Source: an uncultured bacterium
Lineage (GTDB): Bacteria; Auribacterota; Erginobacteria; Erginobacterales; Erginobacteraceae
NCBI GenBank assembly: GCA_937885075.1
Contig: CAKZYZ010000354.1
Location: forward strand, 1-47,775
DNA: 47,775 nucleotides
Reading direction: 5' to 3'
Part shown: positions 1,180 through 18,185 of the stretch, piece after piece
Layout of the letters: each line of letters opens with the position of its first letter
Numbering within the stretch: position 1 is the first letter of the stretch
The notes under the pieces: generated by a model
Told to the model about the DNA's origin: nothing
Databases searched by the model: none
The model's input: only the letters and a program-made list of their open reading frames with translations
Program-made: the position numbers and the translations under genes

Positions 1180-2559
1180 ATGGCTTCATTGGAAAAATTA
1201 GCGTTAATGCTTCAGCGGGCTAAAGACGGTAAACCCTGTACTCTTAGAGAATGGGAGATAGTGGTTTTACCTCAATCGGTAAAAAAGATCCTTAAAAAGT
1301 TTGATTTAGAGCAGACCTTTAATAAAGACGAACCGGTCAACCAGGATATGGAACTGGCCGACCGGTTTTTTCAGGCCGGACTGGAATTAGCAACAGAGAT
1401 CGGTCTGATGTGTCCCGATACCGAATCCACCATCCAGCTCAGCCGGGAGGAGATCCTGGAAGGGGTGGAAGCCGCCCCCGATCACCTGACCCTCGGGGAA
1501 GGCAACGATCGGATCACCATCCATGCTCGCCGGATCGAGGATCCGATCCCGCCGGTTCTGGGAGGGCCTCTGGCCATCCAGGTTTCGGAAGAACTCTATG
1601 TCCCGATTGCCGCCGGTATTTTGAAGAGCCGGAAGGTCCGGGTCCAGCAAGGTCCGTCGATTGACCGGGTCTTTGATCTCCCCGTTTATTCCGGCACTCC
1701 CTTTGAGACCATCGTCGCCTTCCGGGAGAACCGTCTCCGGGAAGAAGCCCAGTGGCGGGCCGGTCGTCCCGGGATCCCCAACATCACGATCGCTTCCAGC
1801 ACCACCGAGTTCGGCAATCTGGGCGGTTTCGCCGGATCGACCCGGCCTGACAATCCGGCCATAGCGGTTATCCTCCACCCGGCCGAGCTGAAGATCTGTT
1901 ACGCCAGTTTTCACAAGGCCGCCGCGGCGATCGGATACGGGGGCTACATCTTCTCCGGCACTAACTCGATGATCGGCGGTTACACCGGAGGAGCTGAAGG
2001 CGCGACCGTGGGAAATATCGCGACCGTGTTGCTCCAGTTCCCGGTCATGCAGGCGGATATGTCGAACTCGTCACTCTATGATGTTCGGATGGACTCGGTC
2101 TGCGGGAGGCATGGCCTCTGGGCGCTGAGCATGGCCAATCAGGCGATCAGCAACAATACTCACCTCCTTGACCACAAAGTCATCAATCAGTCCGCCGGTC
2201 CCTGCACCGAGGAGATCCTCTATACCACCGCGGCCGGCCTGATCGCGTCCGGGGTATCCGGGATGGAATTCAACCTCGGTCCCCGCTCCGCCGGGGGACG
2301 GTTCAAGAATTACCTCTCCCCGTTGGAGCACTGGTTCTCGGGTGAGGTCTTTGAAGCCAGCGCCAAACTATCCTTATCCCAGGCCAACGAATTGATCCTT
2401 TATCTGCTCAGTAAATATGAGGATACCCTGAAAGATCCTCCGAAAGGCCAGAGCTTTACCGAGTGCTTTGACATAAAAACTCTGACCCCGACCAAGGAAT
2501 GGCAGAAAATTTATGACCGGGTTAAAGATGACCTGACGGCGCACGGGATGGAGTTTTAG
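1180..2559 (+). CDS. mtmB: Monomethylamine:corrinoid methyltransferase MtmB-family protein, no in-frame amber codon
   Basis: Resembles recalled MtmB motifs along its whole length (RAKDGKPC, GGP, AGRPG, ELKI, GGYTGGAE, AGPCTE, PPKGQSFTECFDIKTLTPT). ATG 1180 with GGAG at 1167-1170 preferred over TTG 1165. Confidence 0.85.
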   Translation: MASLEKLALMLQRAKDGKPCTLREWEIVVLPQSVKKILKKFDLEQTFNKDEPVNQDMELADRFFQAGLELATEIGLMCPDTESTIQLSREEILEGVEAAPDHLTLGEGNDRITIHARRIEDPIPPVLGGPLAIQVSEELYVPIAAGILKSRKVRVQQGPSIDRVFDLPVYSGTPFETIVAFRENRLREEAQWRAGRPGIPNITIASSTTEFGNLGGFAGSTRPDNPAIAVILHPAELKICYASFHKAAAAIGYGGYIFSGTNSMIGGYTGGAEGATVGNIATVLLQFPVMQADMSNSSLYDVRMDSVCGRHGLWALSMANQAISNNTHLLDHKVINQSAGPCTEEILYTTAAGLIASGVSGMEFNLGPRSAGGRFKNYLSPLEHWFSGEVFEASAKLSLSQANELILYLLSKYEDTLKDPPKGQSFTECFDIKTLTPTKEWQKIYDRVKDDLTAHGMEF

Positions 2560-2579
2560 TCCCGCCGATGGCGGGACTA
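2557..2579 (+). terminator. GC-rich hairpin at the mtmB stop
   Basis: TAGTCCCGCC-GAT-GGCGGGACTA; no long U tract, so it may be a REP-like stem instead. Confidence 0.4.
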
Positions 2580-2608
2580 ACGTTGAAAAATAAGAACGTT
2601 GAAAAGGG

Positions 2609-2842
2609 AGGGATCGGTAATCAGTAATCAGTGATCGGTGATCAGTCAACCGGGTGGCCGAGTGTTCTTTTCCTGACAACCGATTACCGCTTACCGATTA
2701 CTATCCTTTTAAAGGGGCCGAGGTAGGGGGATCAATCGGTGTTAATCCGTGTAATCCGTGGACAGAAAAGGGGGGGAGGTAGAGGGAAGCAATTAGTGCA
2801 AATTGGTGTAATTAGTGGACAGCAAAGCCGCCAAGCCAAGGT
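2609..2842 (+). repeat. Composite ~235-bp intergenic repeat, copy 1 (7-mer hairpin + GCCGAGG linker + two 9-mer modules)
   Basis: Near-identical colinear copy at 14719-14954; partial copies at 13311-13430 and 11950-12061. Confidence 0.9.
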
Positions 2843-2858
2843 TGAAGGAGCAGGACCA

Positions 2859-5150
2859 ATGAACAAAACCAGCGGATACAAGTATGTCGGAAAACCTGTT
2901 CTCCGGATTGATGTTCGGGAGAAGGTGACCGGCCAGACCAAATATTCTACCGATCTTTACTTTAAAGATATGCTTCGGGCGAAAGTTCTCAGAAGCCGCT
3001 ACCCCCACGCGAAGATTCTTAAGCTGGACGTGGAGAAAGCGAGGCGCCTTCCCGGGGTAGAGGCGGTTCTCACCCATGAAGACGTTCCCGGTCATAACGG
3101 CTTTGGAATTATCGAACCCAACTGGCCGGTCCTCTGTTCCGACCGGGTCCGTTACCGGGGGGACGCGATCGCTCTGGTGGCGGCGGTAGATGAGCGGACC
3201 GCCGAAGAAGCTCTCTCCCTGATCGAGGTGGAGTATGAACCGCTGGAAATTATCGATACCCCGGAGGAGGCTCTCCGTGAGAATGCTCCCCTGATTCATG
3301 AGGATGGGAATATCCTCCATACCATGGAGTTGAGCAAGGGAGACGCGGAGACGGGATTCGAAGAATCGGAGATTATCCATGAGAAGACTTATAATACCCA
3401 GTTCATGGAACACGCCTATATTGAGACCGAGGGTGGGGTAGCAATCTATAATGAAGATGACGGCGTTATCACCATCTGGTGCGGCAGCCAGTATGTTTTT
3501 CGCGATCAGCTCCAGGTAGCCCGCAGCCTTGACTGGGACCCCGAGAAGATCAGGGTTATTGGTTCTCCGGTCGGGGGTGCCTTCGGGGGGAAGGATGAGA
3601 TCAGCACCCAGATTCATACCGCGCTGCTGGCGCTCCATACAAAAAAACCGGTCCGTCTTCACTGGACCCGGGAAGAATCGATCGTGGTTGGTCCCAAGCG
3701 CCACGCGTTTAAGACTGATTTCAAGATTGGAATGAACAAAGCCGGCCATTTCCAAGTCATTGATCTATCTCTGGAAGCCAATGGTGGGCCCTACGATACC
3801 ATCAGTGGTCCGGTTCTCAATGTAGCGGTGGAAGTAGGGTCAGGTCCCTATCGGTATTCAAATTCACATATCAAGGGGGTGACAGTCTATACCAACAATA
3901 CGGTAGGAGGTGAATTTCGTGGATTTGGCGGTCCTCAGACTTCATTCGGTATGGAGCAGGAGATTGACCGGCTGGCCGAAGAGATCAAGATGGATCCGAT
4001 CGAATTTCGGCTCCATAACGCGGTGGAGAAAGGAGATATCTCTGTTATCGATCATGAATTAAAGACCAGTACCGGCACCAAAGCGACCCTGCGGGCCGCC
4101 CGGGATACCGACCTCTGGCGGAACCGGGAGAAGATCAAGCGTGATCTCGGGGAAAAGTATCCGGACTGCCAATTTGGTGTCGGGGTAGCGACGATCATGG
4201 TTCCGGTTGGACTGGGGGTTGGTATCCCCGACTTCGCCAATGTGGTAATTGAAATCGGTGAAGAAGGGAGCGTAACTCTACGGACCGGAGCGATTGAGAT
4301 CGGCCAAGGAAACCTGACCGCCTACGCCCAGATGCTGGCTGAATCGCTGGAGTGCGATATCGAAAAGATTGAAGTGATTCATGGAGATACATTTCTTACT
4401 CCTGATTCGGGGTCGGTCACCGCTTCTCGTTCAATTATGATGGTTGGGAACGCTATCCTTAACGGGGTGAAACAATTGATCCCCCGGTTGATATCCCTTG
4501 GCGCGGATCTCCTGGAAGTCCCGGAGGAAGAAGCGGAGTATGGCGGTGGCCGGGTCTCTCTGAAGAAAGATCCCGGCCGGGCGGTCACTATCGCCCAACT
4601 GGCTGATGCCGCGCTCCGGCGAAAAGATCCCTTGAAGGTTACCGGGACCTCTAATATGCCGGAATCGGATAAGGATTTTGGCGATGGCCTTCCCCATATC
4701 TGTTATACCTATAATACTCAGTTGGCCCTGGTAGGGGTTGATATGGGGACCGGTGAAGTTGAAGTTAGAAATACCATCTCACTCCCGCAGTTGGGAAGGG
4801 CGATAAACTCGGCCGGGGTGGAAGGGCAGTGTGAAGGTGCTACAGTAATGGGACAGGGGTACGCTCTTTACGAAGACGTAATAGTTAAAGAAGGGGAATT
4901 TAAAAATACCGGATTCTCCACCTATATTATCCCCACCTCTCTCGATGCTACCGATCATGAGACAGTGGTCGTTGACCTACCGGAGCTCGAAGGACCCTTC
5001 GGTGCCAAGGGGATCGGAGAAGCCTCCACCTGCACCATCGCCCCGGCCATCGCCAACGCCATCTATGACGCGGTAGGGATCCGATTCGATTCCCTGCCGA
5101 TTACCCCGGAGAAGGTTTGGAAAAAGATTAGGTTGGGCAGTGGGGAGTAG
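2859..5150 (+). CDS. Xanthine dehydrogenase/aldehyde oxidase family molybdopterin-binding subunit
   Basis: KVTG...Y, HAKI, GGAFGGK, FRGFGGPQ, EIGQG, GQCEG...GQGYAL, GAKGIGE motifs. ATG 2859 preceded by AAGGAG; the upstream ORF extension to 2739 lies inside the repeat. Confidence 0.93.
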   Translation: MNKTSGYKYVGKPVLRIDVREKVTGQTKYSTDLYFKDMLRAKVLRSRYPHAKILKLDVEKARRLPGVEAVLTHEDVPGHNGFGIIEPNWPVLCSDRVRYRGDAIALVAAVDERTAEEALSLIEVEYEPLEIIDTPEEALRENAPLIHEDGNILHTMELSKGDAETGFEESEIIHEKTYNTQFMEHAYIETEGGVAIYNEDDGVITIWCGSQYVFRDQLQVARSLDWDPEKIRVIGSPVGGAFGGKDEISTQIHTALLALHTKKPVRLHWTREESIVVGPKRHAFKTDFKIGMNKAGHFQVIDLSLEANGGPYDTISGPVLNVAVEVGSGPYRYSNSHIKGVTVYTNNTVGGEFRGFGGPQTSFGMEQEIDRLAEEIKMDPIEFRLHNAVEKGDISVIDHELKTSTGTKATLRAARDTDLWRNREKIKRDLGEKYPDCQFGVGVATIMVPVGLGVGIPDFANVVIEIGEEGSVTLRTGAIEIGQGNLTAYAQMLAESLECDIEKIEVIHGDTFLTPDSGSVTASRSIMMVGNAILNGVKQLIPRLISLGADLLEVPEEEAEYGGGRVSLKKDPGRAVTIAQLADAALRRKDPLKVTGTSNMPESDKDFGDGLPHICYTYNTQLALVGVDMGTGEVEVRNTISLPQLGRAINSAGVEGQCEGATVMGQGYALYEDVIVKEGEFKNTGFSTYIIPTSLDATDHETVVVDLPELEGPFGAKGIGEASTCTIAPAIANAIYDAVGIRFDSLPITPEKVWKKIRLGSGE

Positions 5151-5302
5151 GCAGTGGGCAGTGGACCGGCCCTGTAGCCGCGGTCGCTGACCGCGGATGG
5201 GGGAATGGGGAGTGGGCAGAGGTAGAAGCAGGGATGAGGAGGTAGGAGCAGGGAATGGCAGGGACTGAACGTCGAACTTCGAATGCCGAACTTCGAACGT
5301 CG
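5134..5302 (+). repeat. Repeat cluster at gene end: GGCAGTG 7-mers, a GTAG-type REP hairpin, TCGAAC 7-mers
   Basis: GGGCAGTGGGGAGTAGGCAGTGGGCAGTGG overlaps the stop; GTAG-CCGCGGTC-GCT-GACCGCGG near 5174; GAGGTAGAAGCAGGGA recurs near 13011; TCGAAC runs recur near 11890 and 41360. Confidence 0.7.
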
Positions 5303-5464
5303 CATAGCTTGCAGCGCCTCGCAAAATGTCTTCGGCACCGCAGGGTAAACCCCGTAAAATGATTTCGTCACCTCGTGGTAAAAATTCGTAGTTCTTTTTT
5401 ATTTAGCGAAGATTCGCGGTTTAATCACTTACAAAACTAAGTTATGGGAGGAGTATAATAACTC

Positions 5465-5779
5465 ATGGCTAAAGCGGAGATCAAACCAGGGATCTGTGGT
5501 TTTACCACCACGGTAGAGGTGTGTAAGACCGGGGTTCGTTCCTGTTCACTGACGGTTAAAAGCGACTGTTCCCACATCCGGGAACTGGCCTCGAAACTGA
5601 CCGAACTTGACCCCTTCCGGGAGATTGCATTTCGCGGGGAAGGGCCACTGGTCTTCCGGGAGGCAGCAAGAACTCTTCCTCATCCCGCCTGTCCGGTTCC
5701 GATCGGGATCATCAAAGCGATCGAGGTGGAAGCCGGTCTGGCCCTCCCCCGGGATGTGGAGATAAGGTTGAGCAAGTAA
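5465..5779 (+). CDS. Small conserved Cys-containing protein (DUF6951-like)
   Basis: PGICGF...SDC...HPACPVP...IEVEAGLALP pattern; GGGAGGAG RBS upstream. Confidence 0.7.
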   Translation: MAKAEIKPGICGFTTTVEVCKTGVRSCSLTVKSDCSHIRELASKLTELDPFREIAFRGEGPLVFREAARTLPHPACPVPIGIIKAIEVEAGLALPRDVEIRLSK

Positions 5780-6074: not shown

Positions 6075-8566
6075 ATGACTCTTCAGTACCTTGGACAAAA
6101 TCTTTCCCGGCCTGACGCGTTTGACAAAATAACCGGGGCGGCCACTTATCTTGATGATATCCGCCTTCCCGGTCTTCTTCATATGGCGGTTCTCCTCCCT
6201 GAAGACGCGCACGCGATAATCCGTTCAATCGATGTAACCGAGGCTGAAAGGTCTCCGGGGGTAGTACAGGTGGTTATCGGACGTGATTGCCCATCCCGTC
6301 ATGGGATCGATTTTCGGGACCGGCGGCCGCTGGCGGTCGATCGGGTTCGCCACGTCGGTGAACCGGTGGCGGCGGTTATCGCTGAAGATGTCCGTCAGGC
6401 CCGTCTCGCCGTCCATAAGATCCGGGTTGAGTATGAGCAGTTACCGGTTTACACCGATGGACGCGCGGCCATGGCGGGTGGAGCTATCTTGATTCATCCG
6501 GAGACCGACCCGGAAGAGTATCCCGCCAGCTGGAATCATCTTCCCGGGACCAATATTGTCAATCATCAGGTACTGAAGAAGGGGAACCTCGATCAGGGGG
6601 TTGCCGATTCCGATATTACTGTCGAAGGTGAATTTAATTATCCGTTTTCCGTCCCCGGAGCGATTGAACCGCATGGAGCGATTGTCTGGTTTAAAGGGAA
6701 TGGGATAATTGAGGCGTGGCTCTCCTGTATCCGTCCCTTCATGGTAAGAAAAATGCTGGCTGAGATTTACCATCGGCCGGTAAGCTCCGTCCGGGTACAC
6801 GTCCCGGAGGTGGGAGGATGTTTCGGGGATAAATCCGGAACTCACTTTGTCTTTACGGTGGCCGCGGCGGCCAGCCGTATCCCCGGCCGGCCGGTTAAAT
6901 GGTTTGCTACCCGCAAAGAATCTTTTCTCTGCGGTTCGATCGGAAATGGGATCAGAACTCGTCTGAAGATCGGCGCTGATTCCAGAGGAAATCTCACCTT
7001 CTTTAAAGGAGTCGTCCATCACTCGGTAGGGGCATATTCTGACATAGGGAGCGGTGTGATGACAGCCGCCCTGGCGAATATCACGGGCCCGTATGAGGTT
7101 CCCAATTACCAACTGGAAGGATCTTGTGTCTATACCAATACGCCCCCGGTCGGGGCACTCCGCGGCTTCGGCAACCAGTCGGCCTTTTTCGCCACGGAAA
7201 GGCTGATGGATATGCTGGCAAAAAAATTGAAGATGAATCCGGTCCGCTTGCGGGAGATAAATCTTCCGCGAGCCGGTCAGGGGAATCATCCCGGTGACCT
7301 GGGGGATGTTGGTGGATGTGTAAGTATCGTTGCCGAGAAACTTTATCCCCGACCCAAGCCGGTTGAGGATGAATTGTATTTTTACGGGCGCGGTTTTTCC
7401 GTTCTTAGAAAAACCCCCGGTCCGACCGGATTCTACGGCCGGAGCTGTTATCTGAAATTCAATGGAGATGGATCCGTAACTTTAAATTTCGGAACAGTGG
7501 ATATGGGAGGGGGGCATCGCAATGCCATGCGCCAGATCGCGGCGGAAACGCTGCGGATCTCTCCGGAGAGGATTACGGTCTCCTCCGATATCGATACCCA
7601 GACATCTCCCTGGGAGTGGCAGACAGTGGGCTCGCTTTCGGTTTTACTCTGCGGGCAGGCGGTGGTCGAGGCCGCCGGGAAGGCGATTGAACTATTGAAA
7701 GAGACCGCCGCCCGGGTTCTTGGATGTCCATCGGGCCAGCTTAGCTAGACCTTACTCGAAAAGCCTTTTAAACCACGAAGAACACGAAGTTCACGAAGGA
7801 ATTTGAAGAAACAAAGGAAAATTCCATAGTTTTCTTTGTTTTTCTTCGTGTTCTTCGTGACCTTCGTGGTGAATATTTAGTTTTTTAGCACAGAATGTTA
7901 AAAATACCTTTTCGAGTACGGCCTAGCTACGATGGTGAACAGGTCTTCAAAACGTCCGATCCCGCGGTTCGGGTTCCAGTCGCCGGTCTGGCGCACGGTT
8001 TTCGCGATGAGTCGGGAAGGACGATCGGTGGTGAGATCCAGACCACATCAAATGTACATCTGGATAACCGGTTCCTCCCCGGTCGGGACGGAGGAGGACA
8101 GTTTGAATCAGTCTTTATCTATGGCGCCCAGGGGTGTGAACTGCGGATCCATAAGGAGACCGGGCGCGTAATCATCGATCACTTTATCTCGTCTTTTGAT
8201 GTGGGCCGGGTTATCAATCCCCAACAGATCCGGGGGCAGGTAACCGGCGGCGTGATGATGGCGCTTGGCGCGGCGTTGAACGAAGAACTGAAATTTGATC
8301 GACTGGGAAGACCCCTCAATCCATCCTTCGGCCGGTATCGCTTGCCGACTATCTCCGACGCGCCGCTCAGGCAGACGATTGAGTTTGTGGAGACCCCGTT
8401 AGAGATCGGCCCTTTCGGAGCCCGTCCGATCGGAGAGGGGACGGTGGTGGGAGTAACCCCGGCGATTCTGAACGCTATCGCCGACGCGACCGGAATCCAG
8501 TTCTACGATCTCCCGGTCACCCCCGACCGGATCAAGGCGGCCTTGAAAAATGCATCGGGATTTTGA
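6075..8566 (+). pseudogene. Second xanthine dehydrogenase family Mo subunit, interrupted by a MITE
   Basis: ORFs 6075-7748 (GGCFGDK, LRGFGNQ) and 7895-8566 (DVGRVINP, GQVTGG, GARPIGE) join in frame (..GQLS-YDGEQV..) when 7748-7929 (182 bp) is removed, giving 769 aa. Confidence 0.9.
7748..7923. mobile_element. 176-bp MITE-like insertion
   Basis: 16-bp TIRs GACCTTACTCGAAAAG / CTTTTCGAGTACGGCC (2 mismatches); TAGCTA duplicated at 7742-7747 and 7924-7929; internal 9-mer periodic hairpin CCACGAAGAACACGAAGTTCACGAAG...CTTCGTGTTCTTCGTGACCTTCGTGG. Confidence 0.9.
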
Positions 8567-8772
8567 TTTAAGATGGTTTTGGATCATGGCATCGCCTTTG
8601 TTGCCCATTAAGAATAGGCAATAAATGGGCAGAATTATATGATTGTCATCAATATATTTATGTGAGAAAATATTTAATCTAGTACTACGCTCCCGCGTGG
8701 TAATGTTTAGCCGTATGTCCCTGTTTTGTAATTTTTCCGAGAACCATCCGGATCCCGATTTATTCAAAACAT

Positions 8773-8857: not shown

Positions 8858-10345
8858 ATGAAAGACAGACGATTCATACTGGCCCGGACCAGGCTTCTGG
8901 TCCCGTTGAGTGACGCGCTGGGAGAGGATACCCGGATTACCGACGGGTATGTCCTGACCGACGGTTCCCGGATTAAAGAGGTGGGTTGCTACTCTCCAGA
9001 ACGGGGGAGAGAGATTGTCGCGGAGTGTGGCAGCGAGCTACTGGTCCTGGGAGCGGAACCGAAGGACTCATATTCCGAGGAGGATATCCCGATGCTTGAC
9101 GGGGTGGCCCTTCCCGGATTTATCAAGTGCCACGGGCACGACCATGAGTCGCCGATCATCGGGATCTCCAAGGATGAGCCACTGGTTGACTGGCTTGATC
9201 ATACCGTAAATATGTTTACCGGCTTTATGAATACCCGGAGGGAAGAGTTGACCGAACGCTTCGGGAAGTCACCCAATCTGATCCCTTACCTTAAGGCCCG
9301 CCTTGACGATATCCACTACGGGATTACCTCCTGCCTGGTAAATCATACCAGTTTCAACAAATACCGGATTGATGATCTGGTCTCTGCCAATCTGGCGTCC
9401 GGGAGTAAGATGACGATCGCGGTAGGGAGTTCCGATCAGAACTATGACCCGCGGGTAATGGAGACAATCGATCAGGCGGTAGATCGCCTGGAGCAGGCGC
9501 AAAAATCGTTTGGCGAGACCGAAAGGGTCGAGATCATCCCCGGCCCGGATCAGATATTTTCCAACAGCCCCGAGATGCTCTCCGCCCTGAAGAATTGGGC
9601 CGACCGTTACGGCAAACTGGTCCACGTGCATAGTTCCGAGGAGCCGGATACCACCCGGTGGTTCGCTGAAGAGTACGGCAAAACCCCGATTGAGATGGCC
9701 GCGAGCGCGGGTTTTCTAAATTCATACACCCTCCTGGCCCACCAGTGCAACAGTACCGACCGAGATCTGGAGATAATCCGGGAGTCGGGCGCGACCGTGG
9801 TCCACAACCCGCTGGCCAATACCATCATCGGCGATGGGATGCCGCCGATCATCCGGATGATGGAGATGGGTATCCCGGTCGTGATCTCCACCGATGGCGC
9901 CGGGGCGGCCGACAATCAGAACATCATCAACGCCGCCCGCCTGGCCGCCCAGTATCAGAAAGCCTATCACCGGGATGCCACGCTCCTCCCCTCACTCACC
10001 CTGCTGAAGATGATCACCGTTGACGCGGCCCGGGCCCTCCGGTTAAACGCGGGACGGCTGGAAGAGGGCAAAGACGCCGATTTCATCATCCTCGATCTCA
10101 AACCTTCGAACCTGGTCCCCAGCCGGGCCGACAATATAATTGAAAATATTATTTGGGCCGCGGACGGCAATGAAGTACAATGGATGGTAGCTAACGGACT
10201 GTTGCTCCGGGATGACTATCGGGCAGTCCGCCTGGACGAGAAGATGATCAAAAAAGAAACCCAGCAGCTCTCGGAATTAATGATTGAATTCAGGGATCGC
10301 ACGGAAGAGATTGTCGCCACCGGGATAAGAGGTGAACAGAACTGA
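8858..10345 (+). CDS. Amidohydrolase family metal-dependent deaminase (MTA/SAH or purine deaminase-like)
   Basis: LPGFIKCHGH (HxH), HVHSSE, LAH, HNPLAN, STDG, GRLEEGKDADF motifs. Confidence 0.9.
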   Translation: MKDRRFILARTRLLVPLSDALGEDTRITDGYVLTDGSRIKEVGCYSPERGREIVAECGSELLVLGAEPKDSYSEEDIPMLDGVALPGFIKCHGHDHESPIIGISKDEPLVDWLDHTVNMFTGFMNTRREELTERFGKSPNLIPYLKARLDDIHYGITSCLVNHTSFNKYRIDDLVSANLASGSKMTIAVGSSDQNYDPRVMETIDQAVDRLEQAQKSFGETERVEIIPGPDQIFSNSPEMLSALKNWADRYGKLVHVHSSEEPDTTRWFAEEYGKTPIEMAASAGFLNSYTLLAHQCNSTDRDLEIIRESGATVVHNPLANTIIGDGMPPIIRMMEMGIPVVISTDGAGAADNQNIINAARLAAQYQKAYHRDATLLPSLTLLKMITVDAARALRLNAGRLEEGKDADFIILDLKPSNLVPSRADNIIENIIWAADGNEVQWMVANGLLLRDDYRAVRLDEKMIKKETQQLSELMIEFRDRTEEIVATGIRGEQN

Positions 10346-11499
10346 AAAACCGTTTCCAGCTCAGTAAGGCGATTGCCAACCTCACGCCGATAGGGGCTCT
10401 CATCCTGGCCCTGATGGTCGGGGTGGTGATGCTGGTGCTGATGGGGGTCAACCCGATTATCGCCTTCGGGGCTCTCCTTAACGGGGCCTTCGGTAATAAG
10501 TTCGCCCTGGCCAACACGGTGGTAAAAGCGACCCCGATCCTCTTTGTCGGCCTGGGGATCTGTATCTCTTTCCGGGCCGGAGCCTTGAATATCGGAGGGG
10601 AAGGGCAGTTGGTGGTTGGCGGCCTCGCGTCTATCTCGATCGCCCTGGCGATACCGGAATGGCCCGGCTGGATGGTTATCACCTTAGCCTGTCTGGGAGG
10701 GATGATCGCCGGAGCGATCTGGGGCGGAATCGCCGGGGTGCTCAAGGCCTATTTTAAAGTAAATGAGGTCCTCTCCACGATCATGCTCAACTATATCGCC
10801 GTCTATCTGATGACCTTTCTAATCCACGGCGTATTGATGGACCCGAAACAGAGAGAGAGCGGATCCTTTATCCCGGAGACGGCGCGGATCGCCCGATCCT
10901 GCGACCTGCCCCGTCTTATTCCCACCCGTGCCCATCTGGGGATTGTGATCGCGATTGTCTTAGCCTTCGCGGTCTATCTCTTTCTCTGGCGGACCACGAT
11001 CGGGTTTCGCCTCCGCATGGTGGGAAAGAGCCCACGGGCCTCTCTCAACGCCGGAGTCAATGTCAAGAGTTACACGATCCTGGCACTTCTGCTGGGCGGG
11101 GCCTTCGCCGGACTGGGAGGCGCGGTAGAGATACTGGGGACCCGCTATAATATGTTCACCGATAGTTCGATGTCCTGTTTCACCTCCAGCGCGGGCTTCA
11201 ATGGAATTGTGGCTGCCCTCTTCGGGCAGCTTCATCCGATCGGGGCTATCCCGGCCTCATTCCTGCTGGGCGCCCTCCTCTCCGGGGCTCAGAAGATGCA
11301 GCGGGTGGTCCAGGTACCCTCCGCCCTGATCGGGACATTGAACGGTTTAATAGTCCTTTTCGTGGTAGGGAGCGAGGTCATCCGCCGGCGTCTCTCATCC
11401 CGGGCCGAGCTTTCGGCGGAGAAAGAAGCCGACTTCAAAAGGCCTGATGACTCGGACTTCGAAGAGTCCGGACAGGACGGAGAAGACGGTAAGCAGTAA
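10342..11499 (+). CDS. Nucleoside/sugar (CUT2/Nup-type) ABC transporter permease; probable CTG start
   Basis: NIGGEGQ, NEVLSTIMLNY, GFNGIVAALFG motifs. Frame is open back to CTG 10342, overlapping the upstream TGA, with GAGGTG 7 nt before; first ATG is 10414. Confidence 0.85.
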   Translation: MKNRFQLSKAIANLTPIGALILALMVGVVMLVLMGVNPIIAFGALLNGAFGNKFALANTVVKATPILFVGLGICISFRAGALNIGGEGQLVVGGLASISIALAIPEWPGWMVITLACLGGMIAGAIWGGIAGVLKAYFKVNEVLSTIMLNYIAVYLMTFLIHGVLMDPKQRESGSFIPETARIARSCDLPRLIPTRAHLGIVIAIVLAFAVYLFLWRTTIGFRLRMVGKSPRASLNAGVNVKSYTILALLLGGAFAGLGGAVEILGTRYNMFTDSSMSCFTSSAGFNGIVAALFGQLHPIGAIPASFLLGALLSGAQKMQRVVQVPSALIGTLNGLIVLFVVGSEVIRRRLSSRAELSAEKEADFKRPDDSDFEESGQDGEDGKQ

Positions 11500-12073: not shown

Positions 12074-12084
12074 AGAGCAAAGCT

Positions 12085-13005
12085 ATGTTGAAAGAAACAA
12101 TAATCGGAATCGCCGGATCGGGGATCCGACTGGCTACGCCCTATCTCTATGCCGCGATCGGGGAGGCCTTCGGGCAGCTCTCCGGGGTGCTCAACTTAGG
12201 CGTTGACGGGATCATGCTGATGGGCTCCTTCGCGGCCTTCTTCGTAGCCTTCAAGACCGGGAGTCTGCTCCTGGGGCTTCTGGCGGCGGTTATCGTAGGC
12301 GGTCTGATGGGGCTCTTCATGGCCTTTATCAGCGTGACCATGCAGGCGGAGCAGGGGATCAGCGGGATTGGTCTCTACCTCTTCGGGTTGGGATTGAGCG
12401 AGTTGCTCTTCAAGAAGATGCTGGGAACGGTGCAGACCGTAAATGGCTTCGCGCCGGTGCCGATCCCGCTGCTGGCAAAGATCCCGATTCTGGGGGAGAT
12501 CTTCTTCCAGCAGAATGTCCTGGTCTACGGGGCGTTTCTTCTGGTGCCGGTGGCCTGGTTTGTTATCAACAAAACACCATTAGGGCTCAAGGTCCGGGCG
12601 GCGGGCCAGAATCCGCAGGCGGCGGACTCCCTGGGGGTGAATATCAATCGGGTCCGTTATCTGGCGGTAACGGTGGGGGGAATGCTCGCCGGGATAGCCG
12701 GAGCATCGCTCTCGATCGCTCTCCTTAATCTCTTCCAGCAGAATATCACCAACGGGATGGGATTTATCGCGGTGGCACTGGTCTATTTCGGACGCTGGCG
12801 CCCGATGGGGATACTGGTAGGGGCGCTCCTCTTCAGCATGGTCAACGCCTTTCAGATCTGGGCCCAGGTCCAGGGGATCGGAATACCGCCCGACTTCATG
12901 CTGATGATCCCCTATATTATTACCATTGTGGTCCTGGCGGCAATGGTGAAACAGCGTGTCCGGAGTCCGGCGGCGCTGAATAAGCCGTTTGAGAGAGGAG
13001 AATGA
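12085..13005 (+). CDS. Nucleoside/sugar ABC transporter permease (second subunit)
   Basis: GE...SGVLNLGVDG, GLKVRAAGQNP.AADSLG, GMGFIAVALV.FGRW.P motifs. Confidence 0.9.
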   Translation: MLKETIIGIAGSGIRLATPYLYAAIGEAFGQLSGVLNLGVDGIMLMGSFAAFFVAFKTGSLLLGLLAAVIVGGLMGLFMAFISVTMQAEQGISGIGLYLFGLGLSELLFKKMLGTVQTVNGFAPVPIPLLAKIPILGEIFFQQNVLVYGAFLLVPVAWFVINKTPLGLKVRAAGQNPQAADSLGVNINRVRYLAVTVGGMLAGIAGASLSIALLNLFQQNITNGMGFIAVALVYFGRWRPMGILVGALLFSMVNAFQIWAQVQGIGIPPDFMLMIPYIITIVVLAAMVKQRVRSPAALNKPFERGE

Positions 13006-13010
13006 GTCAA

Positions 13011-13465: not shown

Positions 13466-13698
13466 TAGGAGCCGGGGGGGAGTTGTTTGATTTTTGATGC
13501 TTGTAATTTCTAATTAATCCGCGGCTGCCGCGAAGATACCGGACAGGAGGTGATGATCAGGCAGCAGAGAAAAAGCTGGAATTGAATTTAACCGGCGAAA
13601 AAGTCATGCCTGTTTCTCAAAATTATTCGTCGAAAGCAAAAGTTTTAACAATTATCTTATTTTTCCGGAGGAAAAATAAGATAGGGAGGAGAGAAAGA

Positions 13699-14673
13699 AT
13701 GAAATTAAGGAATTTAATAGTAGGGTTAGTCGCGCTGGCGCTGATATTGACCGGGCTCACCTCGGGCGCCGAGGCCAAACCGTTCCGGGTAGCCTGGGTC
13801 ATGCCCAGTACCATCAACGATTACGGTTGGTGCCAGTCTTTTTATGAAGCTCTGGTTGAGATTCAGAAGGAGATGGGGGGAAAAGATAAATTTGAATTCA
13901 CTTATTCCGAACTTCTCTTCATGCTGGATGACGCTGATGCCGCGATCCGAGATTATGCCAGCCAGGGATATGATCTGGTTGTAGCTCATGGCTCCCAGTA
14001 CGGCAGTCTCCTCAAGAATATCGCTCCGGATTTCCCTGAAATCAGTTTTTGCTGGGGTACCGGCGGAGATCCTTTTACCGATCTGGGGATCAAAAATGTC
14101 TTTGGATACAGCAACCTGGCTGATCAGTCCGGTTTCGCCATGGGCGCTCTGGCGGGAAAATTAACCAATAGCGGAATCATCGGCTGGGTTGGTCCGGTTG
14201 AGGCCAGTTCAACCAAGTCATTCGCCGATGGTTTCAAAAAGGGGGTTAAATATACCAATCCCACCGCCAAGGTTAATGTAACCTGGACCGGTTCCTACTC
14301 CGACCTGGCTCTGGCCTCCGAGGCGGCCCAGGCCCATATCGCCGCCGGCGCCGATGTACTGGCCGGTCACGCTCAGATCCAGGTAGCCATTATTAACGCC
14401 TGCGCGCAGAAAGGGGTATATTTTCTCGGTGCTCAATCCAATCAGATCCCCTTCAAGCCTGATACCGTAGTAGCGAGTCAGGTCAATATGTGGAAGGTAG
14501 CACTGGCGCCAATGATTAAGGCGATTCAGGGCGGCAAACTGGGCGGAGAAAAATTTGAGCTGACTTTAGAGAACGGTGGCCAGGTGATTGTGGTTAACGA
14601 TCCGCTGCTGCAGAAGGCCTTCATCGGTGATACCGTCCAGAAGATCATCGACGGCAAGATCAAGACGGACTGA
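13699..14673 (+). CDS. BMP family ABC substrate-binding protein (purine/nucleoside type)
   Basis: Signal peptide; INDYGW, YASQGYDLVVAHG, GWVG, GSYSD motifs; ATG 13699 with GGAGGAG RBS. Confidence 0.9.
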   Translation: MKLRNLIVGLVALALILTGLTSGAEAKPFRVAWVMPSTINDYGWCQSFYEALVEIQKEMGGKDKFEFTYSELLFMLDDADAAIRDYASQGYDLVVAHGSQYGSLLKNIAPDFPEISFCWGTGGDPFTDLGIKNVFGYSNLADQSGFAMGALAGKLTNSGIIGWVGPVEASSTKSFADGFKKGVKYTNPTAKVNVTWTGSYSDLALASEAAQAHIAAGADVLAGHAQIQVAIINACAQKGVYFLGAQSNQIPFKPDTVVASQVNMWKVALAPMIKAIQGGKLGGEKFELTLENGGQVIVVNDPLLQKAFIGDTVQKIIDGKIKTD

Positions 14674-14689
14674 ACAAGAAGTAAGGGAC

Positions 14690-15070
14690 GAATATCCAAT
14701 GACCAATGTCCAATATGAAGGGATCGGTAATCAGTAACCAGTGATCGGTGATCAGTCAGCCGGGTGGCCAGGTGTTCTTTTACTGATAACTGATCACCGC
14801 TTACTGATTACTATCCTTTTGAAGGGGCCGAGGTAGGGGGATCAATCAGTGCAAATCTGTGTAATCCGTGGACAAAAAAAAGGGGGGGAGGTAGGGGGGG
14901 TAAATTAGTGTACATTAGTGTAATTAGTGGACTGCAAAGCCGCCAAGCCAAGGTGAAACAATTCGCGCAATTCGTGTAATTCGTAGTTCATTTAAGCGAC
15001 CGGCCGAAGCGAAACAATCAGAGTAATCCGTGTAATCTGTGGACAAAAAGAAGGGGCCGAGGTAGGGGGA
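14690..15070 (+). repeat. Modular intergenic repeat array including composite repeat copy 2
   Basis: 14719-14954 matches 2609-2842; further ATTCGTGTA and ATCCGTGTA modules; exact 20-mer AAGGGGCCGAGGTAGGGGGA at 14822 and 15051. Confidence 0.9.
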
Positions 15071-15103
15071 AACAAAAGAAGTAATCAGTGGACTGAACCG
15101 AAG

Positions 15104-16657
15104 ATGACTACCGACCAGACAGCAATCAATTTAATCAAGGTGGACTCCCTGGAGGCCCGGGGGATCGTGAAACGATTCCCCGGGGTCCTGGCCAACGACC
15201 ATATTGACTTCGAAGTCCATGCCGGTGAAGTACATTCGCTCCTGGGAGAGAACGGAGCGGGCAAGTCCACCCTGATGAAAATCCTCTACGGGATGTATCA
15301 GCCCGACGAGGGGGAGATTTTGGTCAACGGCAAGGTGGTCCGGATCCGTTCCCCTCTCGACGCCATGAGCCACGGGATCGGAATGGTCCATCAGCACTTC
15401 ATGCTGGTTCCGACCCTTACGGTGACCGAGAATATAGCTCTGGGTCTTCCTTCCTCGCGGAAAGTTCTTCTGGACCTGGACGTGGTGGCCCGGCGGATTG
15501 AGGAGTTGGCTGCTATCTATCATCTCCAGATAAACCCCAAAGCGCCGGTCTGGCAGCTCTCAGTGGGGGAGCAGCAGCGGGTGGAGATCCTGAAGGTTCT
15601 CTACCGGGGCGCTTCGGTCCTGATCCTGGATGAGCCGACCGCGGTCCTGACCCCCCAGGAGGTGGATGGTCTCTTCAAGACTCTCCACAAGATGGTGGCT
15701 CAGGGCCACGCCCTGGTCTTTATCAGCCACAAGCTCTGGGAGGTGATGGCTCTCTCCAATCGGGTGACGGTACTTCATACCGGGCGGATGGTAGGAGAGT
15801 TGCCGATTGAGGAGGCGGACGAGAGGAAGCTGGCCAGTATGATGGTGGGGCGGGATTTTCTGATGCGGGTGGATCATCCGGAGGTGGAGATGGGGGAGGT
15901 TCATCTGGAGCTGAAAGGGATCCGGGCTCTGGGGGAGAGCGGACTGGAGTCGCTCAAGGGAGTTGATCTCCGGATACGGTCCGGTGAGATCCTGGGATTG
16001 GCCGGGGTTTCGGGGAACGGACAGCGGGATCTGGCCGAGGTGATCGCCGGGTTGAGACCTCCGACGGCCGGGGAGGTCTTCATGGAGGGGGTGGACGTGA
16101 CCGGCTGGACCCCGGCGAAACTACTGGAGCACGGTCTCTCCTATATCCCGGAGGCGCGGATGGTTGATGGAACAGTGGGTGATTTTTCTGTTTCGGAGAA
16201 TCTGATTATGAAGGATCATACCTACCCACCCTATGCCGATGGAATCTTCATGAACTTCAAGAATATCGCGAAAGAAAGCAAGCGATTGGTCGAGACATTC
16301 GATATCAAGACCCCTTCCATAGCTACTCCGATCAAGAACCTCTCCGGGGGGAATATCCAGAAGCTGATTCTGGCCCGGGAGATATCGAGAGGACCGCGGG
16401 TACTGGTCGCGGCCCAGCCGACCCGGGGACTGGATATCCGGGCAACCGAGTATGTGCGGCGGCGGATCACCGAGCAGCGGGAGAAGGGAGTTACCACGCT
16501 CCTGATTTCGGAGGATCTCGATGAGATTCTCTCGCTCTCCGACCGGATCGCGGTGATCTTCGAGGGAGAGATCATGGGGGTGGTGGACCGGGATGATGCC
16601 ACGTTTGAGAATTTGGGGCTGATGATGGGGGGGAGGAAGATGGAGACTGAAGAATGA
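15104..16657 (+). CDS. ABC transporter ATP-binding protein (tandem ATPase, CUT2 type)
   Basis: GENGAGKSTL, LSVGEQQRVE, LILDEPT, second domain LSGGNIQK, QPTRGLD. Confidence 0.95.
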   Translation: MTTDQTAINLIKVDSLEARGIVKRFPGVLANDHIDFEVHAGEVHSLLGENGAGKSTLMKILYGMYQPDEGEILVNGKVVRIRSPLDAMSHGIGMVHQHFMLVPTLTVTENIALGLPSSRKVLLDLDVVARRIEELAAIYHLQINPKAPVWQLSVGEQQRVEILKVLYRGASVLILDEPTAVLTPQEVDGLFKTLHKMVAQGHALVFISHKLWEVMALSNRVTVLHTGRMVGELPIEEADERKLASMMVGRDFLMRVDHPEVEMGEVHLELKGIRALGESGLESLKGVDLRIRSGEILGLAGVSGNGQRDLAEVIAGLRPPTAGEVFMEGVDVTGWTPAKLLEHGLSYIPEARMVDGTVGDFSVSENLIMKDHTYPPYADGIFMNFKNIAKESKRLVETFDIKTPSIATPIKNLSGGNIQKLILAREISRGPRVLVAAQPTRGLDIRATEYVRRRITEQREKGVTTLLISEDLDEILSLSDRIAVIFEGEIMGVVDRDDATFENLGLMMGGRKMETEE

Positions 16658-16684
16658 ACTTCGAACTAAAACAAAAAGACAATT

Positions 16685-16945
16685 AGACAAGACGATTTAG
16701 GGACAGGACGATTAAAAGCAAAAAGAATTGTGGCAGGACGATTATAGGCAGGACGATTAAAAAGCAAAAAAACTTAAAGGCAGAATGATTACGGGCAGAA
16801 TGATTAAAAAGCAAAGGAATTAAAGGCGGAATGATTAAAAGAAAAATAATATAGCCCGAGGCGAGGCTAATCATTCTGCCCCAAATTATTCTGCCTTAAA
16901 AGGCCCGAAGTGAGGCAAATCGTCCTGACTGTAATAGTCCTGCCA
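16685..16945 (+). repeat. Nested inverted repeat array (CAGGACGATT outer arms, CAGAATGATT inner arms); empty GxxExxY-type site
   Basis: Tandem ~45-bp left units, then GCCCGAGGCGAGGC-TAATCATTCTGCC and GCCCGAAGTGAGGC-AAATCGTCCTG right arms. Confidence 0.85.
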
Positions 16946-17147
16946 TAAAAAAGGGGGTGAAGTGGGGGGAGAAGGATCAGAAAGTGACAACTTTAAATCA
17001 GGACAATTTTGGATATTGGGTATTGGTTGACTTCGCCAAGGATACGGCGGACAAGTTGAAAATTTAATAAGGAGGTAGTGAATGGTTTAGATGAAGTAGT
17101 ATTGTGATAAAATCGGGTTAAATGTCTAAACGAATGGAGGAGAAGTC

Positions 17148-18185
17148 ATGAGAGTACGATGGATGTCTTCTGTTGTAGCAGTGTTAATGGTTGTTGGTAC
17201 TATGATCTGCGGAAGCTGGAGTGAAGGCGCGGATGAGGCCGCGCCCAAGAGCGTACGGATAGCGGTTGTTAATTCTTTGATCAAGGAGCTGCCCTGGAAC
17301 ACCGGGCTGGTCCAGGCACTGGAGCGGGTGAGCGAAGAGAAGCCGTTCGGCCTGACGGTGAAATGGGACTTCGTGGAGAATGTCAGCAATGCCGACGCGC
17401 AGCGGGTGATGAACGAACTGGCCAAGACCGGCAAGTACGATATCATCTGGGGGCATGACCCTTATCCCGAGGCCGTGAAAGTCCTGAGCAAAAAGTATCC
17501 GGATATCCTCTGGGTGATTGCCGGAGCCGGAAACGAGGTTATCGGTCCCAATGTTTACTGGGTTGATGAATTTCTTCACGAGGCGGGATACCTCTGCGGG
17601 ATGATCGCGGGGATGATGACCAAGACCGATGTGGTCAGTGTGGTCGCTTCCTACCCCTATCCTCCCATCAATCTTCCCGTCAATGGATTTTTTGATGGAG
17701 CCAAGGCGGTCAACCCCAAGGTTAAGGGAAAGGTAACCTACATTGAAGCCTGGCTCGACCCGATGAAGGCCAAAGAGTCGGCCCTGGCTCAGATCGCGGC
17801 CGGTTCGGACTTTGTCTATGCCGAGCGCTTCGGCCCTTTTGAAGCCTGCAAGGAGAAGGGTGTCGGCGCTTTTGGTCATATGGTTGACCAGTGGGATATC
17901 ACTCCCGAAGTGGTTGTTTCCAGCACCATGTATATGTGGGATCCGGTTATTAAGTATGTCATCAAGGACTGGCTTAACTTTAAAAAGACCGGCAAACCCC
18001 TGAACGCTCCCCAGGAGCGGATCATCTTCACCATGAAGAATGGCGGAGTCGATATCGCCCCCTACCATCTCTGGGATAAAAAGATACCCCAGAAGGTCAA
18101 GGACGCGGTCGCGCAGGCGAAGAAGGATATCATCAGCGGAAAACTGGTGGTTCCCCAGCGTCCGGAGAAAGCGGTCTCCGATTGA
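17148..18185 (+). CDS. Second BMP family ABC substrate-binding protein
   Basis: Signal peptide; PWN, YDIIWGH, GYLCGMIAG, W.DP.KAKE.ALAQI..G.D motifs. Confidence 0.9.
   Translation: MRVRWMSSVVAVLMVVGTMICGSWSEGADEAAPKSVRIAVVNSLIKELPWNTGLVQALERVSEEKPFGLTVKWDFVENVSNADAQRVMNELAKTGKYDIIWGHDPYPEAVKVLSKKYPDILWVIAGAGNEVIGPNVYWVDEFLHEAGYLCGMIAGMMTKTDVVSVVASYPYPPINLPVNGFFDGAKAVNPKVKGKVTYIEAWLDPMKAKESALAQIAAGSDFVYAERFGPFEACKEKGVGAFGHMVDQWDITPEVVVSSTMYMWDPVIKYVIKDWLNFKKTGKPLNAPQERIIFTMKNGGVDIAPYHLWDKKIPQKVKDAVAQAKKDIISGKLVVPQRPEKAVSD

Follow-up and report, generated by a model that had tools for sequence, protein, structure and literature searches.

A pyrrolysine-free MtmB homolog in a candidate catabolic supercluster for N-methylated purine-type heterocycles of an uncultured Auribacterota bacterium

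Comparison with described demethylation systems

The only non-pyrrolysine (non-Pyl) homolog of the methyltransferase MtmB with a demonstrated function is MtqB of Methanococcoides methylutens, which demethylates tetramethylammonium and choline (PMC13044021). Non-Pyl MtmB homologs account for 1,061 sequences in the tree of that study, MtqB is placed near the Pyl MtmBs, and the remaining non-Pyl members are termed enzymes of unknown function (PMC13044021). A further homolog of this type, and the genes that surround it, were analyzed in a 47,775-nucleotide stretch of DNA (the window) that constitutes contig CAKZYZ010000354.1 (C354) in assembly GCA_937885075.1, a metagenome-assembled genome (MAG) of an uncultured bacterium of the Erginobacteraceae (Auribacterota). 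The MAG, here G000, comprises 4.4 Mb in 434 contigs and is 87% complete; genomes of relatives in the same family are 2.3-4.5 Mb. The window is interpreted, with a probability of roughly 0.5, as the downstream third of a ~45-kb catabolic supercluster for an N-methylated purine-type heterocycle, a reading that is supported by its genomic context only.

MtqB and MtqC resemble the system considered here in the use of a pyrrolysine-free substrate:corrinoid methyltransferase (MT1) of the MtmB family with a dedicated corrinoid protein and a second methyltransferase (MT2). However, MtqB is archaeal, acts on quaternary amines, and has no reported context of xanthine dehydrogenase-family (Xdh), amidohydrolase or BMP-family genes, whereas the window MT1 belongs to a bacterial clade that is embedded in purine-type catabolic clusters. 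The combination of MT1, corrinoid protein, MT2 and reductive activase also typifies MtgB (glycine betaine), MtcB (carnitine), MtpB (proline betaine) and the acetogen O-demethylases. These systems, the first three of which belong to the non-Pyl MttB superfamily, are similar in that anaerobic demethylation is accomplished where the leaving group needs no pyrrolysine, but differ in that the MT1 here is a PF05369 protein, the proposed substrate is a heteroaromatic ring N-methyl group, and the link to a molybdenum (Mo) hydroxylase is new.

Caffeine-degrading Pseudomonas use the Rieske N-demethylases NdmA/B/C(D/E), in which several paralogous subunits operate with common accessory proteins. The Ndm enzymes need O2 and release formaldehyde. 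The outcome proposed for the supercluster is comparable, namely position-specific N-demethylation of methylxanthines by paralogs with common accessory proteins, but the process would be O2-independent, the methyl group would be kept on a corrinoid or one-carbon (C1) carrier, and the two systems have no sequence relationship; a Rieske domain was not detected among the 31 open reading frames (ORFs) of the window that were scanned. We know of no enzyme for the anaerobic N-demethylation of methylated purines. Release of 13CH4 from N-13C-methyl caffeine was reported in anoxic sediment, with the enzymes not identified, in a 2026 preprint (10.64898/2026.01.06.697959). The anaerobic urate, or 2,8-dioxopurine, pathway of Escherichia coli is encoded by the cluster xdhD-ygfK-ssnA-hyuA-ygeWXY (bioRxiv 10.1101/2025.04.24.650524). 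It shares with the present system an Xdh-family Mo enzyme, SsnA- and HyuA-type amidohydrolases and an M20 amidase, homologs of which occur in G000 and in part lie beside MtmB-like genes (contig C427 of G000 and locus L015 of another species), whereas the known cluster is without corrinoid methyltransferase components. The original prediction for this DNA knew of no characterization of the gene combination. No literature linking MtmB homologs with xanthine dehydrogenase (XDH) was found, the titles listed by a search for MtmB and purine included nothing on a link with purine catabolism, and the description of Ca. Auribacterota makes no mention of MtmB, xanthine or purine.

The MtmB homolog and the reconstructed supercluster

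Domains in window ORFs were assigned with Pfam, equivalog status was judged by NCBIfam cut-offs, and solved relatives were sought in the PDB; absences of Rieske, iron-sulfur (FeS), FAD and corrinoid proteins from the window refer to the scan of its 31 ORFs. The MtmB-like ORF has no internal stop codon, and its product covers positions 6-449 of the 450 in the PF05369 profile and aligns across residues 12-457 with Methanosarcina barkeri MtmB (PDB 1L2Q; E 4e-53). As the position of Pyl202 in 1L2Q is occupied by Ile202 in the alignment, the window gene is assigned as a non-Pyl homolog. Seven MtmB-family genes including that of the window are present in G000, none with an in-frame stop; the set consists of six close members, namely the window protein and five paralogs with 64-69% identity to it, and one at 27%. 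A scan of metagenome contigs also yielded orthologs with 93% identity on three related contigs, L083, L084 and L085. In a quick tree with SH-aLRT support only, the window protein fell in a separate clade of 35 rows apart from the Pyl rows, the six close G000 paralogs and Ca. Erginobacter formed one clade (support 99), and this clade was sister to Bacillota rows (support 100). The family was found in only two of the 41 genomes of a phylum sample, one besides G000, which fits acquisition followed by expansion.

The reconstruction of the supercluster follows the order of genes on L083, which is MtmB (cut), Mo, MtmB, FeS, FAD, BMP and PAS-LuxR, followed by MtmB, XdhMo1, DUF6951, XdhMo2 (intact), amidohydrolase and two permeases, where XdhMo1 and XdhMo2 denote the Mo subunits of the window. 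The first 891 nt of L083 match the 3′ end of the MtmB gene on G000 contig C257 at 87.7%; along L083 there then follow G000 contig C328 at 83% and the window at 82-91%. The PAS-LuxR regulator gene is divided, with the codons for its first 30 residues in the tail of C328 and its continuation at the head of the window; ~4 codons are missing compared to L083. The junction between C328 and the window thereby is directly demonstrated. Illumina adapter sequence and A-rich junk end the contigs (C328 from 7444 onward and C257 from 21066 onward), and the adapter core is present in 344 of the 434 contigs of G000. As the contig tails carry the adapter, the assembly breaks are artificial and the contig ends are artefacts rather than biology.

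Put in this order, contigs C257, C328 and C354 of G000 are collinear with L083. C257 contributes Amt, three RidA domains, an amidohydrolase, BMP, ATPase, two permeases, URO-D, CobW, a corrinoid protein and MtmB. C328 contributes genes for an FeS subunit (Fer2_2; 4581-5063) and an FAD subunit (FAD_binding_5; 5308-6165) directly upstream of the window. The methyl-transfer genes of the supercluster comprise three for MtmB-like proteins, one for a corrinoid protein, one for an MtaA-like (URO-D) MT2, and CobW. The Mo enzyme genes comprise three for Mo subunits and one each for FeS and FAD subunits. Further genes specify two COG0402 amidohydrolases, two ABC systems with four BMPs, an ammonium transporter, a triple RidA fusion and one PAS-LuxR regulator. 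Chance does not account for this arrangement, which is syntenic in three metagenome contigs and whose gene combination recurs across phyla. A reading of the window as a self-contained unit is not supported: genes for a [2Fe-2S] subunit, an FAD subunit and a corrinoid protein were absent from the Pfam scan of window ORFs, and it is the upstream contigs C257 and C328 that carry the genes for corrinoid protein, MT2, FeS and FAD subunits. A corrinoid protein gene is located ~9-10 kb upstream of the window MtmB in the reconstruction, beside the C257 paralog.

The 41 ORFs around the MtmB paralogs of G000 were annotated by Pfam. On C272, the order is PAS-LuxR, DUF1611, BMP, corrinoid protein, MtmB, MtmB, PAS-LuxR and DUF1611, and on C194 it is corrinoid protein, MtmB and amidohydrolase. 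The C328 paralog is flanked by Mo upstream and by FeS, FAD and BMP downstream, and that of C257 terminates the series amidohydrolase, BMP, ATPase, permease, permease, URO-D (MtaA-like), CobW, corrinoid protein and MtmB. On C427, PAS-LuxR, amidohydrolase, cyclase, DUF2284, RidA and amidohydrolase precede MobA, PAS-LuxR, MtmB, hydantoinase and an SsnA-like amidohydrolase.

Both Xdh-family Mo subunits that had been described for the window are present, but the second is split. The Hammerhead, MoCoBD_1 and MoCoBD_2 architecture is complete in XdhMo1, which has a G-x-G-E motif near the C-terminus; its ORF is open from 2739 and a repeat-free ATG preceded by AGGAG is located at 2859. The best NCBIfam match of XdhMo1 was pucD with 634.4 bits, below the cut-off of 783.65, and the Se-dependent XDH (521 vs. 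830) and XdhA (472 vs. 780) models also were below cut-off. The best model for XdhMo2 was XdhA, a xanthine dehydrogenase model, rather than pucD. The N-terminal part of XdhMo2 is 27% identical to XdhMo1, its C-terminal part aligns with XdhMo1 residues 591-802, and the two XdhMo2 ORFs thus align to consecutive stretches of XdhMo1. They are separated by a 176-bp miniature inverted-repeat transposable element (MITE) with terminal and internal inverted (heptamer) repeats, flanked by a 6-bp duplication, TAGCTA, at 7742-7747 and 7924-7929. The MITE divides XdhMo2 into ORFs of 557 and 223 aa in different frames, the latter opened by an ATG at 7895 within the element, and excision of the MITE with one TAGCTA copy restores the frame. 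In G000 the XdhMo2 domain architecture becomes complete only if reading continues across the MITE, whereas the L083 ortholog has it in a single intact ORF of 776 aa with full Pfam coverage. L083 lacks the MITE at the orthologous site, and its alignment with the window skips exactly the element. On this sequence evidence XdhMo2 is judged to be inactivated by the MITE in G000. A blastn search produced 141 high-scoring segment pairs for the MITE in G000, including seven other full-length copies at 98.9-100% identity and many partial copies at contig ends; a large share of the matches are 99-100% identical, which suggests recent activity. Depth over the MITE in contigs from public runs was 10-100x that of the flanks; contigs of four public runs showed both MITE junctions and none spanned the empty site.

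The Mo gene of C328 has a 1-nt deletion in a C-run (CC vs. CCC) relative to L083 and L085, at ~770 of C328 (L010:740-850), that splits the gene into two frames and may be a real frameshift or an assembly error. Purine-binding residues were dropped as a criterion for XDH, as even E. coli XdhA deviates at those motifs that were visible and the residues would be non-discriminating. The bovine and Rhodobacter capsulatus XDH chains were outside of the best five PDB alignments for either XdhMo1 or E. coli XdhA.

The DUF6951 gene between XdhMo1 and XdhMo2 occupies the same place in L083 and L084. Its product was considered as the missing electron-transfer partner and rejected, as DUF6951 genes had no Xdh or MtmB neighbors in 12 loci from 12 Clostridia-class genomes. 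The other copy of the gene in G000 has unrelated genes as neighbors and is separated from an Xdh operon by 4.4 kb, and an atlas search with DUF6951 matched DUF6951 clusters only. The protein probably is a bystander. A single in-frame TGA occurs in two of the 20 DUF6951 matches in Clostridia-class genomes (G044:C1:1995901-1996203 and G045:C3:82495-82803), which makes selenocysteine forms of the family possible; the family also has matches in Methanosarcina acetivorans.

The translation of the window amidohydrolase shows H-x-H and H-x-x-E motifs with a later His and Asp, which we take to be the catalytic residues of COG0402 deaminases. It matched 28 NCBIfam families, none at its cut-off among the 25 matches listed; the best score was 185.7 bits versus a cut-off of 617, and the nearest models were N-ethylammeline chlorohydrolase/TRZ-ATZ and deoxyadenosine/MTA deaminase. 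Orthologs with 55-59% identity occur in 14 of 40 relatives. A paralog on G000 contig C53 is part of a cluster with the order Xdh, FAD, FeS, amidohydrolase, SsnA-like and YgfK-like.

The importer consists of two BMPs, two BPD_transp_2 permeases and a tandem ATPase. The likely start of BMP a, with a signal peptide, is at 13699. The nearest PDB entries were 3S99 (3.6e-23) and AtzT 6PI5 (1.7e-22) for BMP a, and AtzT 6PI5 (1.4e-27) and 3S99 (5.8e-23) for BMP b. The nucleoside binders BmpD 6SHU and the 6Y9U group scored ~1e-13 against the window BMPs, below AtzT and 3S99. The ligand that co-purified with AtzT is guanine (KD 110 nM), and that of the 3S99 deposition is adenine (PMC6834077). The ABC system had been predicted to be of nucleoside type. 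The set of BMP, permease and ATPase genes is as described, but the nucleoside type is not upheld, the nearest solved proteins being binders of free purine bases. These solved relatives are nearest to both window BMPs at an identity of only ~25%. As read from the alignment, the stacking aromatics of AtzT are kept, with Tyr45 replaced by Trp and Trp194 by Tyr in BMP a, and Trp194 retained as Trp in BMP b. The hydrogen-bonding residues Ser97, Glu165, Asn218 and Asn220 of AtzT (PMC6834077) all are replaced in the window BMPs, and the ligand probably is not plain guanine because these four residues are changed.

Linkage across species and the nature of the substrate

Comparison loci were collected by scanning one genome per species with G000 paralog alignments, which provided 37 loci whose ORFs were labeled by phmmer with a panel of G000 proteins and four proteins from the fetched loci; Pfam and NCBIfam annotation of neighborhoods was done for selected loci. 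Ten of the 37 were excluded from the main count, comprising five Pyl-type, two very distant non-Pyl (25-27% identity) and three broken or fragmentary, hence ambiguous, loci. The remaining 27 core loci represent non-Pyl MtmB-like genes of other species, for which flanks of up to 10 kb were examined. An Xdh Mo gene was present in 14/27 core flanks, an amidohydrolase in 16/27 and either of the two in 21/27. The Pyl-type (0/5) and distant (0/2) loci had neither; among the ambiguous loci, none of three had Xdh and all three had an amidohydrolase, and so 3/3 had either. A BMP gene was found in six of the 27 core loci and a xanthine/uracil permease in two, and neither gene was seen in the Pyl-type, distant and ambiguous loci (0/5, 0/2 and 0/3 in each case). 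A corrinoid protein was near-universal in core loci (26/27) and occurred in 4/5 Pyl-type, 2/2 distant and 2/3 ambiguous loci. The neighborhood check of non-Pyl mtmB genes that had been suggested thus reveals that linkage is conserved, and the refuting outcome named with the prediction, a lack of this linkage in other genomes, did not occur. In Ruminococcus and Clostridiales MAGs, five loci (L027, L028, L031, L036 and L045) have MtmB genes in which one in-frame TAG occupies the pyrrolysine position, beside a corrinoid protein and RACo activase; these are apparent Pyl-type MtmB systems of gut Bacillota.

Xdh-linked loci derive from Peptococcaceae, Oscillospiraceae, Dehalococcoidales, Anaerolineales, Caldilineales-type Chloroflexota and the Auribacterota-like lineage of the window, and each of the three main subclades in the quick tree contains Xdh-linked rows. 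Around MtmB-like relatives in Bacillota and Chloroflexota the same mix recurs, with corrinoid protein, Xdh, purine-type amidohydrolases and BMP or xanthine/uracil permease genes. The genes moreover are interleaved, as Mo, MtmB, FeS and FAD in C328 and L083 (and L085), and as Mo, corrinoid protein, hydantoinase, M20 peptidase and MtmB in L015. Locus L014 of Ca. Formimonas has the order FeS, FAD, Mo, FeS/Mo fusion, xanthine/uracil permease, pterin-binding MT2, corrinoid protein and MtmB-like, in which the MT2 resembles MtgA. In L017, from a gut Oscillospiraceae MAG, the order is IclR, MtmB-like, corrinoid protein, BMP, Mo, FeS, FAD, MocA and xanthine/uracil permease. RACo activase is present in L041.

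Purine-type signals are carried by several of these genes. The linked amidohydrolases in L021 and L041 passed the 8-oxoguanine deaminase equivalog (689, 669 and 568 bits vs. 532), and hydantoinases on C427 and in L015 passed the dihydropyrimidinase/hydantoinase equivalog TIGR02033 (421 and 417 bits vs. 393). The pucD model was best for seven of the eight linked Mo subunits scanned, including window genes, with XdhMo2 as the exception; five linked Mo subunits of other loci had pucD as best match at scores below the cut-off. Homologs of the E. coli anaerobic urate pathway in G000 are YgeX (374 bits), YgeY (320), HyuA (276), SsnA (234), YgfK (224) and YqeA (213), with HyuA-like and SsnA-like genes adjoining one MtmB paralog on C427. 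Of the 2,8-dioxopurine gene cluster the window has just Xdh-family and COG0402-type genes, and homologs of this pathway are scattered on C53, C196, C243, C361, C427 and C70. A profile search of G000 detected 16 Xdh Mo-subunit loci, 15 BMP genes and four corrinoid proteins, and phmmer matches to the panel types comprised 11 FeS, 10 FAD and 17 amidohydrolase proteins. With this unusually high number of N-heterocycle genes, G000 looks like an N-heterocycle specialist. On contig C45 (L067:959-4059), a homolog of AllG (oxamate carbamoyltransferase subunit) and a double-cyclase protein are encoded just upstream of another FAD-FeS-Mo operon, and an AlkD-type DNA alkylation repair gene is 5 kb downstream.

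The pathway proposed from these gene contents would commence with uptake of free methylated purine bases by the BMP importers. Each MtmB-like paralog would remove one ring N-methyl group and transfer it to a shared Co(I) corrinoid protein. Pyrrolysine would be dispensable, since ring nitrogens of the amide, imide, azole or cationic type leave well, and far better than an amine. The same logic accounts for the non-Pyl quaternary-amine (and aryl-methyl-ether) demethylases. The MT2 would hand the methyl group to a C1 carrier, the COG0402 amidohydrolases would remove exocyclic amino groups, and the Mo subunits, on one common FeS/FAD module, would hydroxylate or reduce the purine ring. The product then would enter the anaerobic purine pathway, homologs of which are encoded elsewhere in G000. 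In a more specific and quite tentative version that is doubtful as a whole, the three MtmB-like paralogs would be position-specific corrinoid-dependent N-demethylases for poly-N-methylated purines, with a common corrinoid protein and MT2 and three interchangeable Mo subunits on one FeS/FAD module. Candidate substrates are methylxanthines, caffeine among them, or else methylguanines and methyladenines that occur in nucleic acids and in marine invertebrates. What is hypothesized is a corrinoid three-component methyltransferase that acts on a new substrate class and is coupled to Mo hydroxylases. Embedding in purine-type clusters across phyla provides the bacterial non-Pyl MtmB clade with a directly testable substrate hypothesis. 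If the more specific version is correct, the system would be an anaerobic, methyl-conserving counterpart of the NdmA/B/C oxygenases and the first physiological role for this large clade, and would tie the turnover of nucleobases to C1 metabolism in anoxic environments. If the methylated-purine reading holds, methylated nucleobases would be a source of methyl groups for the C1 metabolism of anoxic sediments, groundwater and guts (L017 is from a gut MAG), and the family would be a source of O2-independent N-demethylation catalysts. For the earlier proposal of a methylated purine or nucleoside locus, the linkage is conserved and the context purine-like, but nucleoside uptake is not supported.

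Several observations weigh against the methylated-purine reading. No window protein attains an NCBIfam equivalog cut-off, and the top PDB relatives of XdhMo1 are the alpha subunit of 4-hydroxybenzoyl-CoA reductase and nicotinate dehydrogenase rather than XDH. None of the amidohydrolases in the 37 loci of other species had the subtype of the window amidohydrolase as its best match, and no panel genes were near its orthologs in the eight loci checked. The junction between C257 and C328 rests on synteny with L083 and L085 only. One, and possibly two, of the three Mo genes of the supercluster are damaged in G000. Many of the 27 core loci are kin (L021/L023, L032/L035 and L037/L039/L041), such that the counts overstate independence, and the 16 Xdh Mo loci and 15 BMP genes of G000 make co-location within this genome less surprising. 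The genome of Ca. Formimonas has eight MtmB-family genes, and a non-Pyl MtmB of this organism is the most induced protein on dichloromethane (PMC9768040). Judged by position, the induced protein probably is a paralog other than that in L014, but because of this induction the substrates of the family clearly are diverse.

A different methylated N-heterocycle could be processed with the same architecture, for example trigonelline or homarine, methylated pyrimidines, pterins, or O-/S-methylated heterocycles. N-methylpyridinium compounds would be demethylated to nicotinate or picolinate, followed by hydroxylation by a nicotinate dehydrogenase-like Mo enzyme. The solved relatives at the top of the list for XdhMo1, which include nicotinate dehydrogenase (3HRD; E 1.8e-91) and 6-hydroxypseudooxynicotine dehydrogenase, are consistent with this possibility, as are the linked hydantoinase-type enzymes that pass the dihydropyrimidinase model, the replacement of polar AtzT ligand contacts in both BMPs with retention of stacking aromatics, and the failure of window proteins to pass a purine-specific equivalog. 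However, the 8-oxoguanine deaminase equivalogs of linked loci, the preference of seven in eight linked Mo subunits for pucD over a nicotinate or aldehyde model, the xanthine/uracil permeases of L014 and L017, the SsnA-, HyuA- and YgeY-like genes of the anaerobic urate pathway, and the lack of an enamidase or 6-hydroxynicotinate reductase context in the annotated loci point instead to purines, and a non-purine heterocycle is considered rather unlikely. It is improbable that the MtmB-like proteins are MtqB-like demethylases of quaternary amines (tetramethylammonium, choline or a related osmolyte) whose substrate is not in common with the Xdh, amidohydrolase and BMP neighbors, and that would simply be located in islands for the catabolism of nitrogen compounds. 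MtqB indeed is the only characterized non-Pyl MtmB (PMC13044021), genes for Xdh (16), BMP (15) and amidohydrolase (17) proteins are abundant in G000, and six of the 27 core loci have neither Xdh nor amidohydrolase. Nevertheless, most of these six are on short contigs (4-15 kb), MtmB-like genes stand in between xdh subunit genes in C328, L083 and L085, and three phyla and every main subclade show the association. Moreover, the transporters are of BMP or NCS2 types and not of BCCT or OpuA types. The latter are usual for quaternary amines.

Decay of the locus in G000 to a remnant without present function would account for the splitting of XdhMo2 by the MITE, the loss of 1 nt from the C328 Mo gene in comparison with L083 and L085, and the repeat-swollen spacers described below. 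Yet the MtmB-like, XdhMo1, amidohydrolase and all transporter genes retain full-length ORFs with full profile coverage, the MITE insertion is recent because copies are 99-100% identical, the deletion is in a C-run of a low-quality assembly with adapter in 344 of 434 contigs, and all genes are intact in the relative L083, which makes a remnant quite improbable. Very improbable is a scheme in which the amidohydrolases cut exocyclic N-methylamino groups, as of N6-methyladenine or N2-methylguanine, and the MtmB-like protein uses the methylamine released. Its attraction is that the best models for the window amidohydrolase are N-ethylammeline chlorohydrolase/TRZ-ATZ and that TRZ/ATZ hydrolases cut alkylamines from triazines, that the BMPs have the atrazine-pathway protein AtzT as nearest solved relative, and that the MT1 is homologous to monomethylamine methyltransferase. 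Pyrrolysine is held to be necessary for methylamine activation. It is replaced by Ile in the window protein, the seven G000 paralogs are without an in-frame stop, and the characterized non-Pyl member does not use methylamine (PMC13044021).

Layout of the window and neighboring features

Twelve co-directional ORFs on the + strand occupy 3-18185, beyond which the strand flips to polysaccharide-export genes. All genes named in the original prediction were recovered by Pfam at their predicted positions on the + strand, including the PAS-LuxR regulator that heads the row (Table 1). G000 has 13 PAS-LuxR paralogs, several of which adjoin Xdh or MtmB clusters.

Table 1. Features of the catabolic gene row in the window
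Feature	Coordinates	Strand	Evidence and remarks
PAS-LuxR (GerE) transcription regulator	3..845	+	Pfam PAS_4 2.7e-12, GerE 5.9e-12; 5′ end cut by contig start
Non-pyrrolysine MtmB homolog, putative substrate:corrinoid methyltransferase (MT1)	1180..2559	+	PF05369 E 3.4e-80
Intact Xdh-family Mo (MoCo-binding) catalytic subunit, XdhMo1	2859..5150	+	Hammerhead, MoCoBD_1, MoCoBD_2
DUF6951 protein, 104 aa, 5 Cys	5465..5779	+	PF22263 E 1.4e-31
XdhMo2, N-terminal 557 codons up to insertion	6075..7747 (ORF 6075-7748)	+	Hammerhead, MoCoBD_1, MoCoBD_2 positions 44-147
176-bp MITE-like palindromic element interrupting XdhMo2	7748..7923	.	Sequence read directly
XdhMo2, C-terminal part, other frame	7924..8566 (ORF 7895-8566)	+	MoCoBD_2 positions 188-283
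Deaminase-type (COG0402/TRZ-ATZ-like) amidohydrolase	8858..10345	+	Amidohydro_1 (PF01979) 2.1e-40
ABC permease (BPD_transp_2)	10414..11499	+	PF02653 3.4e-40
ABC permease (BPD_transp_2)	12085..13005	+	PF02653 2.4e-37
BMP-family substrate-binding protein a	13699..14673	+	PF02608 5.3e-43; ORF open from 13582
Tandem-domain ABC ATPase	15104..16657	+	ABC_tran 1.1e-50, two stretches
BMP-family substrate-binding protein b	17148..18185	+	PF02608 3.4e-29

Spacers of 300-580 nt between cluster genes (2560-2858, 11500-12085, 13005-13580, 14673-15104 and 16657-17148) are full of hairpin-forming short tandem repeats and a 182-nt repeat; the corresponding spacers are shorter in L083. They include a 19-nt G-rich motif with 267 occurrences on 129 G000 contigs (≤2 mismatches), and the spacer repeats are genome-wide REP-like elements that are not specific to the cluster. 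Across 800-18400, 25 promoter-like sites were detected versus 14.1 expected, and 14 terminator-like sites versus 19.2 expected; the scan is uninformative on operon structure.

The remainder of the window (18327-47743) is an exopolysaccharide/glycosylation region that is unrelated to the catabolic genes. It specifies a Wzz-GNVR tyrosine-kinase-type protein, Poly_export, a BBP2 porin, GT2, a B12-binding radical SAM protein, an epimerase and seven PMT_2-family proteins, one with a PA14 domain. Tandem arrays of a 44-47-nt repeat with the core AATAGTCCTGTCTGCAATCGTCCTGTC are located between glycosyltransferase (PMT_2) genes at 26451-26658 and 35648-35981, and inverted copies of the AATAGTCCTGTCTGCAATCGTCCTGTC array are found at 25563-25667 and 16685-16850.

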